Shown piece by piece: positions 13,060 to 13,094 of a stretch of DNA of 14,815 nt (its first letter is position 1; each line of letters opens with the position of its first letter). Source of the DNA: a virus. Lineage: Duplodnaviria; Heunggongvirae; Uroviricota; Caudoviricetes. The notes below the pieces were generated by a model. The model was not told the origin of the DNA. It did not search any database and worked only from the letters and a program-made list of their open reading frames with translations. The stretch is from positions 1 to 14,815 of the IMG/VR virus record IMGVR_UViG_2778261464_000012. One strand, written 5' to 3'. A program made the translations under genes and the position numbers.

Positions 13060-13064
13060 AAAAA

Positions 13065-13094
13065 AGTCCTCCTGACTTATTTATCAGGAGGACT
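13065..13094 (-). terminator. Intrinsic-terminator-like hairpin that contains the terS Shine-Dalgarno
   Basis: Perfect 11-bp inverted repeat AGTCCTCCTGA (13065..13075), 8-nt loop, TCAGGAGGACT (13084..13094). On the minus strand the stem is followed by TTTTT and then the terS ATG; the 3' arm contains AGGAGG. Confidence 0.5.

Follow-up and report, generated by a model that had tools for sequence, protein, structure and literature searches.

A hairpin with the form of an intrinsic terminator stands directly before terS, the small terminase gene, on the minus strand of the 14,815-nt stretch of viral DNA analysed here (hereafter the window), and its 3' arm contains the whole of the terS Shine-Dalgarno (SD) sequence. 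An SD-masking hairpin combined with a terminator before terS belongs to a known class of control. In the present case the hairpin is proposed to act as a gate that stands at the head of the terminase/late operon and is closed by default, with the productive transcripts starting inside the hairpin, and a probability of about 0.4 is assigned to this reading. The parts of the hairpin and the two terminase genes behind it are as follows.

13084..13094, minus strand: 5' arm of the hairpin, AGUCCUCCUGA, anti-SD-like and containing CCUCCU (from sequence and fold).
13076..13083, minus strand: loop, UAAAUAAG (from sequence); with G13085 and A13084 it reads GATAAATA, in which ATAAATA occupies 13084..13078.
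13065..13075, minus strand: 3' arm of the hairpin, UCAGGAGGACU, holding the terS SD AGGAGG (13073..13068).
13060..13064, minus strand: U-tract, terminator tail and SD-to-AUG spacer in one.
12478..13059, minus strand: terS, Nu1-type small terminase of 193 aa (phrog_57, E 2e-17), with its ATG at 13059..13057.
10650..12563, minus strand: terL, gpA-type large terminase (Pfam GpA_ATPase, 7e-50; GpA_nuclease, 3e-44).

On the minus strand the region reads, in order, AGTCCTCCTGA (13094..13084), TAAATAAG (13083..13076), TCAGGAGGACT (13075..13065), TTTTT (13064..13060) and ATG (13059..13057), and it is preceded directly by ACAAAACAT. The segment 13094..13084 pairs with 13075..13065 over a perfect 11 bp, so that the sequence is exactly the perfect hairpin plus U-tract described in the original prediction. 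A U.G pair can close the loop, which gives 12 pairs and a loop of 6 nt. The stem has six G-C pairs among its 11-12 bp and the loop has 6-8 nt, while the T run counts six residues if the paired T at 13065 is included and five otherwise.

The RNA from 13110 to 13040 folds at -21.4 kcal/mol, against -7.8 ± 2.2 kcal/mol for shuffled sequences (z = -6.2), and none of the 200 shuffles is as stable; the folding check suggested with the original prediction is thereby answered at about -21 kcal/mol. The hairpin still forms in a 206-nt context, and making the 3' arm single-stranded costs 21.5 kcal/mol in a constrained fold. It ranks first among the short-range inverted repeats of the window, and no other of the operon's 13 ORF starts has an initiation region as structured as that of terS, whose mean unpaired probability over positions -15 to -4 is 0.10.

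The hairpin has what characterises an intrinsic terminator, namely a stable G+C-containing stem, a short loop and UUUUUU-A-U straight after the stem. A terminator consensus scan of the 14.8-kb window gave just two minus-strand sites of terminator-like form, of which this is one, in agreement with the terminator form claimed at the outset. It equally has what characterises an SD-sequestering structure: AGGAGG (13073..13068) lies wholly inside the 3' arm, as had also been claimed, with an unpaired probability of 0.10. A search against Rfam 15 gave no family at threshold, the best scores being 17-27 bits against thresholds of 39-70. A 32-nt imperfect inverted repeat was considered as an RNase III-type site and set aside, as the extension improves on the core hairpin by less than 2 kcal/mol.

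Only the nearest terS relatives (72-100% TerS identity) carry the hairpin, in three haplotypes; genome, metagenome, contig and pattern scans gave no further one. Haplotype A is that of the window, L001-3, L058-61 and L125 (TerS identity 79-100%), haplotype B (AAGCCTCTTGATA-AATA-TATCAGGAGGTTT) that of L004 and L249, and haplotype C (AGTCCTTCTGAT-AAATAG-ATCAGGAGGACT) that of L127 and L128. Some 28 other non-redundant relatives have ordinary, open terS ribosome sites. The unpaired probability of the SD region is 0.07-0.10 in the hairpin clade, whereas in the hairpin-less relatives it is mostly 0.4-0.9, with one at 0.23. The original prediction was sound as to the hairpin itself, but it missed both the restriction to one lineage and the position, which is equivalent to that of cosB in a candidate lambda-like cos.

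Among 30 non-redundant relatives, a T run before the terS ATG is found only in the hairpin clade and in L032, and the SD-to-AUG spacers of the other relatives are A-rich. The terminator form, U-tract included, is complete in all three haplotypes. The U run arrived with the hairpin, which argues that the terminator form was selected, and not the SD mask alone.

All the stem substitutions found across the three haplotypes keep the pairing: 100% of cells are paired, compared with 35-53% in slid controls. Two stem pairs are changed on both sides (G-C to A-U, and U-A to G.U), and three have become wobble pairs (two C-G pairs and the closing U-A pair of the window become U.G). Substitutions in the 5' arm of relatives are either C to U opposite G or compensated in the other arm, and the loop changes among haplotypes add pairs. 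Pairing is kept through six stem substitutions in relatives whose TerS is 72-79% identical, and the chance that all 11 pairs outlast the five stem substitutions of L004 is 0.002-0.014; a column-shuffle test on the only three haplotypes is marginal (28/500). On the opposite strand the wobble pairs turn into A.C mismatches, and the stability drops from -16.1 to -10.2 kcal/mol in haplotype B and from -17.7 to -13.7 kcal/mol in haplotype C. Because of this loss in the antisense direction, selection must act on the terS-sense RNA, and not on a DNA dyad.

The operon headed by the hairpin continues from terS to terL, the next gene, and downstream of terL to a lambda-family portal and then a protease-capsid fusion. 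The fusion is a single 659-aa ORF (6689-8668, minus strand) with prohead protease (Peptidase_S78) and major capsid (Phage_capsid) domains. Some terS homologues carry Pfam Phage_Nu1 (PF07471). The public annotations of terS (P0032, P0038-P0050, P0021 and L249) are inconsistent: several records start about 50 codons late and give 139-150 aa, and one begins at a TTG inside the hairpin and gives 201 aa.

Within the late operon, at 547..509 on the minus strand and just after a tail-assembly-chaperone-like gene, there is another terminator-like hairpin, which has 17 pairs and a U-rich tail. Its arms hold an SD-like AAGGGG together with the candidate starts GTG535 and ATG517 of the next ORF, and it is the second case in the operon of a terminator that overlaps an initiation region.

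The window matches, at 99.9% identity, a degraded element inserted in ybhA of E. coli G3/10 (L057), a copy that IS3 and IS1 have interrupted. Elements of the same family are found in Escherichia, Klebsiella, Enterobacter, Buttiauxella and other Enterobacteriaceae; in E. coli C2 (L122) the G+C content of the element is about 36%, and that of the host flank 54%. The elements are laid out as a serine recombinase, a few small genes without assigned function, terS, and then head, tail and lysis genes. The integration sites of the serine recombinase are in ybhA (G3/10) and yegD (E. coli C2), and neither a repressor nor a replication module was recognisable in the L057 and L122 elements, whose tail module includes a GTA-like DUF2163. 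Among cultured phages terS had no match and terL was at most 33% identical; no plasmid match for the window was found.

Three features lie upstream of the hairpin, one of them reaching into its 5' arm.

13092..13121, minus strand: weak sigma-70-like match, with -35 GTGACA (13121..13116), an 18-nt spacer and -10 CATAGT (13097..13092).
13111..13182, minus strand: candidate lambda-like cos, consisting of AGGTAC, about 20 lineage-variable nt, CGCGAGTTTTCGGCACCG and then TGTATGTGACATTTT.
13304..14425, plus strand: DUF3800 cargo gene, divergent from terS.

The cos-like block, in which CGCGAGTTTTCGGCACCG is followed after about 12 nt by TGTATGTGA, lies directly upstream of the hairpin and is kept across the element family whatever stands further upstream. 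Across its cohesive-end site lambda reads AGGTTACG, GGGCGGCGACCT, CGCGGGTTTTCGC and TATTTATGAAAATTTT in that order, and direct comparison sets AGGTAC-N20-CGCGAGTTTTCGG of the present element beside AGGTTACG-N12-CGCGGGTTTTCGC of lambda. The likeness rests on this direct comparison, a MAFFT alignment having set lambda in a different register. The block has Nu1/gpA neighbours, conserved flanks, a variable core and a likeness to the cosN flanks, all of which are characters of a lambda-type cos. In lambda the site is laid out as cosQ, cosN, I2 and cosB, with R3-I1-R2-R1 ending just before Nu1 (PMC4669245). We infer from these likenesses that 13182..13111 is the cos site, in which case the hairpin would fill the junction between cosB and terS. 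In several lineages a cargo gene puts about 700 nt between the cos-like block and terS.

The gene directly upstream of terS and cos is usually a reverse-oriented cargo gene. In the window this is the divergent DUF3800 gene, and therefore no co-oriented gene directly feeds transcription into terS. In relatives the slot holds a PLD-family nuclease (PLDc_2), an OLD-family ATPase-nuclease, an RcsF-like lipoprotein or DuOB, at the following places.

Cargo slot in relatives: L122 17714-19534; L126, L129-131, L250 and L251; L128 861-1226; L252.

The genes of the cargo slot are probably defence or accessory genes. L127 has no cargo, and its co-oriented upstream gene ends in a canonical terminator of its own at 1128-1147 (GAACCCGC-TACG-GCGGGTT followed by seven T residues), so that two terminators stand in series before terS. 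On the far side of the DUF3800 gene, 6 nt past its stop, a perfect 14-bp inverted repeat with a 15-nt spacer (14431-14473) separates that gene from convergent small ORFs; it has no T tract and may be a bidirectional stop or processing signal.

The weak sigma-70-like match agrees at 9 of 12 positions and has a predicted start near 13085, inside the hairpin. Matches of this kind are at chance level in the window (50 found, 52 expected), and in L004 the -10 element reads CATAAG, the T at -7 being lost. No promoter above chance was found in 13095-13303. The upstream ORFs of relatives were scanned as well, 19 in all (18 small ORFs and the OLD-family cargo gene). None matched a late regulator or antiterminator in Pfam or PHROG, and no homologue of a gp55-like factor or of a Q- or N-family antiterminator was recognisable among them. 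A module of the Q type, that is, a promoter with a Q-binding/pause element within about 200 nt and a Q-family gene, was not found.

Some other means of relieving or reading through the hairpin were tried and rejected. A cis-acting anti-terminator or anti-sequestor is not apparent, the best duplex of the 5' arm with the 226 nt upstream reaching only -4.7 kcal/mol. Translational coupling to a mini-ORF that ends in the loop (ATG TAC ACA AAA CAT AGT CCT CCT GAT AAA TAA) was set aside because its start is not conserved, the ATG becoming ATT, AAG and AGG in L004, L125 and L127, respectively; no conserved upstream ORF able to unwind the stem was found across the haplotypes. A sigma-54 reading of CGGCACCGATTGCT fails on the GG-to-GC spacing, which is 8 nt and not 10, and L023 lacks the conservation (by eye).

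The loop motif is older than the stem. GATAAATA is invariant across the three haplotypes, the next two bases being variable, and most of the hairpin-less relatives also have ATAAATA, at 18-42 nt before the terS ATG, irrespective of whether their upstream neighbour is cos or a reverse cargo gene. Of 26 non-redundant leaders 13 contain it, where composition-matched simulations predict about 2, and further cases were found besides. Because the relatives without a hairpin carry the motif near terS, the stem arms must have evolved around an older terS-proximal motif. The window as a whole has three copies of ATAAATA against 7.4 expected, all on the operon strand.

ATAAATA copies in the window (window scan), all minus strand: 13078-13084, 1445-1451 and 615-621.

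Of the two copies outside the hairpin, one precedes the tail-tube ATG by 55 nt and is followed by a hairpin of 7-8 bp (GGGTAAC...GTTACCC); the other lies towards the end of the chaperone-like gene. In the E. coli C2 element 17 copies are sense and one is antisense, and the pooled strand bias is 34:1, of which part is accounted for by a single homologous coding site in terL that supplies 12 of the 34 sense copies.

The motif equals the core of T4-type late promoters, TATAAATA (PMC3014915), and resembles the high-affinity H-NS motif tCGATAAATT (PMC2094087). As a general late promoter ATAAATA has the strand bias in its favour, but the terL coding site inflates the count, and in L046 the motif abuts the SD, as it does in L047. 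ATAAATA makes a poor -10 element for sigma-70, and in the window a start 6-7 nt past it would land at or inside the SD. Its contact with the SD in L046 and L047 means that it may be something other than a promoter, e.g. an H-NS site or an A/U-rich translational enhancer.

To E. coli RNA polymerase, a stem of this kind with U6 behind it is a canonical intrinsic terminator, and an SD buried at about -21 kcal/mol is inaccessible to 30S subunits. In the proposed gate, RNA polymerase that enters from upstream (the early or cargo side) and crosses cos would meet the stem and U6 and would largely terminate at the terS AUG, and any RNA that escaped termination would keep AGGAGG locked in the stem, leaving terS untranslated. 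The U-tract abuts the ATG, and therefore no promoter fits between the terminator and terS. It follows that the terS mRNA starts either inside the hairpin or upstream, the latter with antitermination plus a separate release of the SD. Under the gate reading the productive transcripts would begin within the hairpin, past most of the 5' arm, and so carry neither the terminator nor the SD mask. Such an internal start is possible, the sigma-70-like pair being placed to initiate near 13085. RNAs starting at 13086 or 13078 fold at -6.7 or -2.9 kcal/mol, no better than shuffles.

An internal start also bears on the original prediction, in which any transcript reaching terS was said to contain the hairpin: a start within the 5' arm or the loop gives a hairpin-less RNA with a free SD. 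Release by melting of the hairpin, which had been offered as one means of control, is implausible at about -21 kcal/mol. The selective reason for the gate may be that leaky terminase, in an integrated element, would nick cos about 90 bp upstream. Against the gate stands the fact that most members of the element family do without the hairpin.

The rival that would use the terminator differently, and the one put first in the original prediction, is processive antitermination: late transcripts would start upstream, before or across cos as in the lambda PR'-Q system, and would normally end at the hairpin, until a phage-encoded antiterminator carried polymerase past this leader terminator into terS-terL and the remaining operon. 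The canonical form of the terminator agrees with it, as does the lambda-like context (Nu1/gpA terminase, lambda-family portal and cos-like element); in relatives the early genes are co-oriented with terS, L127 has its two serial terminators, and the strong terminator-like hairpin at 547..509 is what one would expect in an operon transcribed by terminator-resistant polymerase. The reverse cargo gene upstream of cos recalls bor of lambda. This mechanism, however, would leave the SD masked, as the hairpin re-forms behind the polymerase and its opening takes about 21 kcal/mol, so that a second activator, of translation, would be needed. Moreover, the conserved 120 nt upstream hold no above-chance promoter, the scanned small upstream ORFs match no Q-, N- or other antiterminator family, and neither a conserved upstream ORF that could unwind the stem nor a cis anti-terminator was found. 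Antitermination is therefore regarded as rather unlikely. A purely translational attenuator, which would keep TerS very low and set the TerS:TerL ratio while the U run served as a mere spacer without termination, is still less probable. It would account for the fully sequestered SD, and many phage contigs carry CCTCCTGA-loop-TCAGGAGG hairpins before an ATG, mostly without a U run and presumably translational in effect; but -21 kcal/mol means an off state and not tuning, and within the family the U run occurs only together with the hairpin, in full terminator form in all three haplotypes.

The remaining alternatives are all given little weight. That the palindrome acts at the level of DNA, as the site of a dimeric protein (TerS at a cosB-like site, or a repressor at its operator) or as a cruciform, is suggested by the perfect dyad with its 8-bp centre and by its location beside the cos-like element, in the place of the R sites of lambda cosB (PMC4669245). 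This is very improbable, because the half-sites differ in L004 and in L127/L128 in exactly the way that keeps G.U pairs in the sense RNA, the palindrome is absent from relatives with the same cos-like element, and in several lineages terS lies about 700 nt from that element. Equally slight, or a little more so, is the likelihood of a 5'-terminal stem-loop that stabilises the late mRNA against 5'-end-dependent decay. An extended-10-like TGTGACATT at about 13122-13114 (by eye) would start transcripts some 10 nt upstream of the stem, but this start site is unsupported, and burying the SD would be unnecessary for such a purpose and even counter-productive; the shield for the 5' end in the original prediction likewise finds no support and leaves the buried SD unexplained. 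Least credible of all is a chance or neutral inverted repeat: the hairpin is indeed lineage-specific, and most of the family lacks it, but a z of -6.2, with 0 of 200 shuffles as stable, and pairing that survives six stem substitutions speak against chance.

Terminase is a site-specific nuclease whose target is cos, and a combined lock on terS, if the gate reading is correct, would show how a cos prophage shields the host chromosome from a leaky packaging enzyme. Such protection would matter most where variable, independently expressed cargo or defence genes sit just upstream. The site of 30 nt, with its three natural haplotypes, is also a compact test case for terminator-plus-RBS hairpins in phage genomes, in which internal initiation, antitermination and processing may be distinguished. 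As the class of mechanism is well known, little more than an incremental gain is to be expected, unless the motif conserved in the loop proves to be an unusual promoter. In that event the (N)ATAAATA of the loop would be a real late-promoter core, read by a factor other than sigma-70, either an unrecognised one encoded by the element, which lacks a replication module, or one supplied by a superinfecting T4-like phage, and a switch of the T4 gene e type would have arisen independently in a temperate lambda-type cos element. This is considered a long shot. If it were true and the factor came from a superinfecting T4-like phage, the packaging and virion genes of the element would be switched on by a helper.

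In its logic, the closest documented system is the hairpin of T4 gene e and I-TevI, with the qualification that the internal promoter is putative in the present element. In those two genes a hairpin hides the SD in read-in transcripts while a late promoter lies inside the hairpin, and the initiation-region hairpins of T4 soc and gene 49 likewise have a late promoter inside (PMC3014915). The present hairpin resembles those of gene e and I-TevI in that a stable structure sequesters the SD in transcripts reading in from upstream, the guarded gene is harmful if expressed early, and (N)ATAAATA stands in the loop or the 5' strand. It differs in having a full terminator U-tract and an internal start that is only predicted, and in the kind of element, which is temperate, prophage-like and of the lambda cos-packaging type, and in which no gp55-type sigma factor was recognisable. 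An identical cassette, CCTCCTGATAAATAAGTCAGGAGG with a U run and ATG, occurs in two T4-like contigs, in which NATAAATA is the late-promoter core.

Near-identical cassette, AAGCCTCCTGATAAATAAGTCAGGAGGCTTTTTTTATG: L105 3870-3911 (plus strand) and L118 2081-2120 (minus strand), before an ORF of 299/302 aa.

The neighbours of the cassette in L105 and L118 are UvsX- and gp41-like, and a TATAAT lies about 10 nt upstream of it.

With the lambda PR'-tR'/Q system the present arrangement shares a terminator ahead of the late genes, a Nu1/gpA terminase and cos, and lambda late transcripts cross cos. In lambda, however, tR' precedes the lysis genes at a long distance from Nu1, and no ribosome-binding site overlaps it; sequence comparison shows the lambda Nu1 leader to be without such a hairpin, and the search of the present element yielded neither a Q-like gene nor a Q-binding promoter or pause signal. 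The resemblance to dual-control Rho-independent terminators and attenuators lies in the stem with its U-tract and in the SD within the 3' arm, by which both processes are blocked; in contrast to them, the window shows no upstream sensor, no alternative anti-terminator, no conserved leader peptide and no Rfam match. Finally, CCTCCTGA-loop-TCAGGAGG hairpins stand directly before an ATG in at least 49 cases in viral contigs, with diverse loops and mostly without a U run. These generic phage anti-SD hairpins have the same stem sequence and the same position relative to the start codon, but the window differs from them in combining the mask, the terminator tail and a loop motif conserved in the family.
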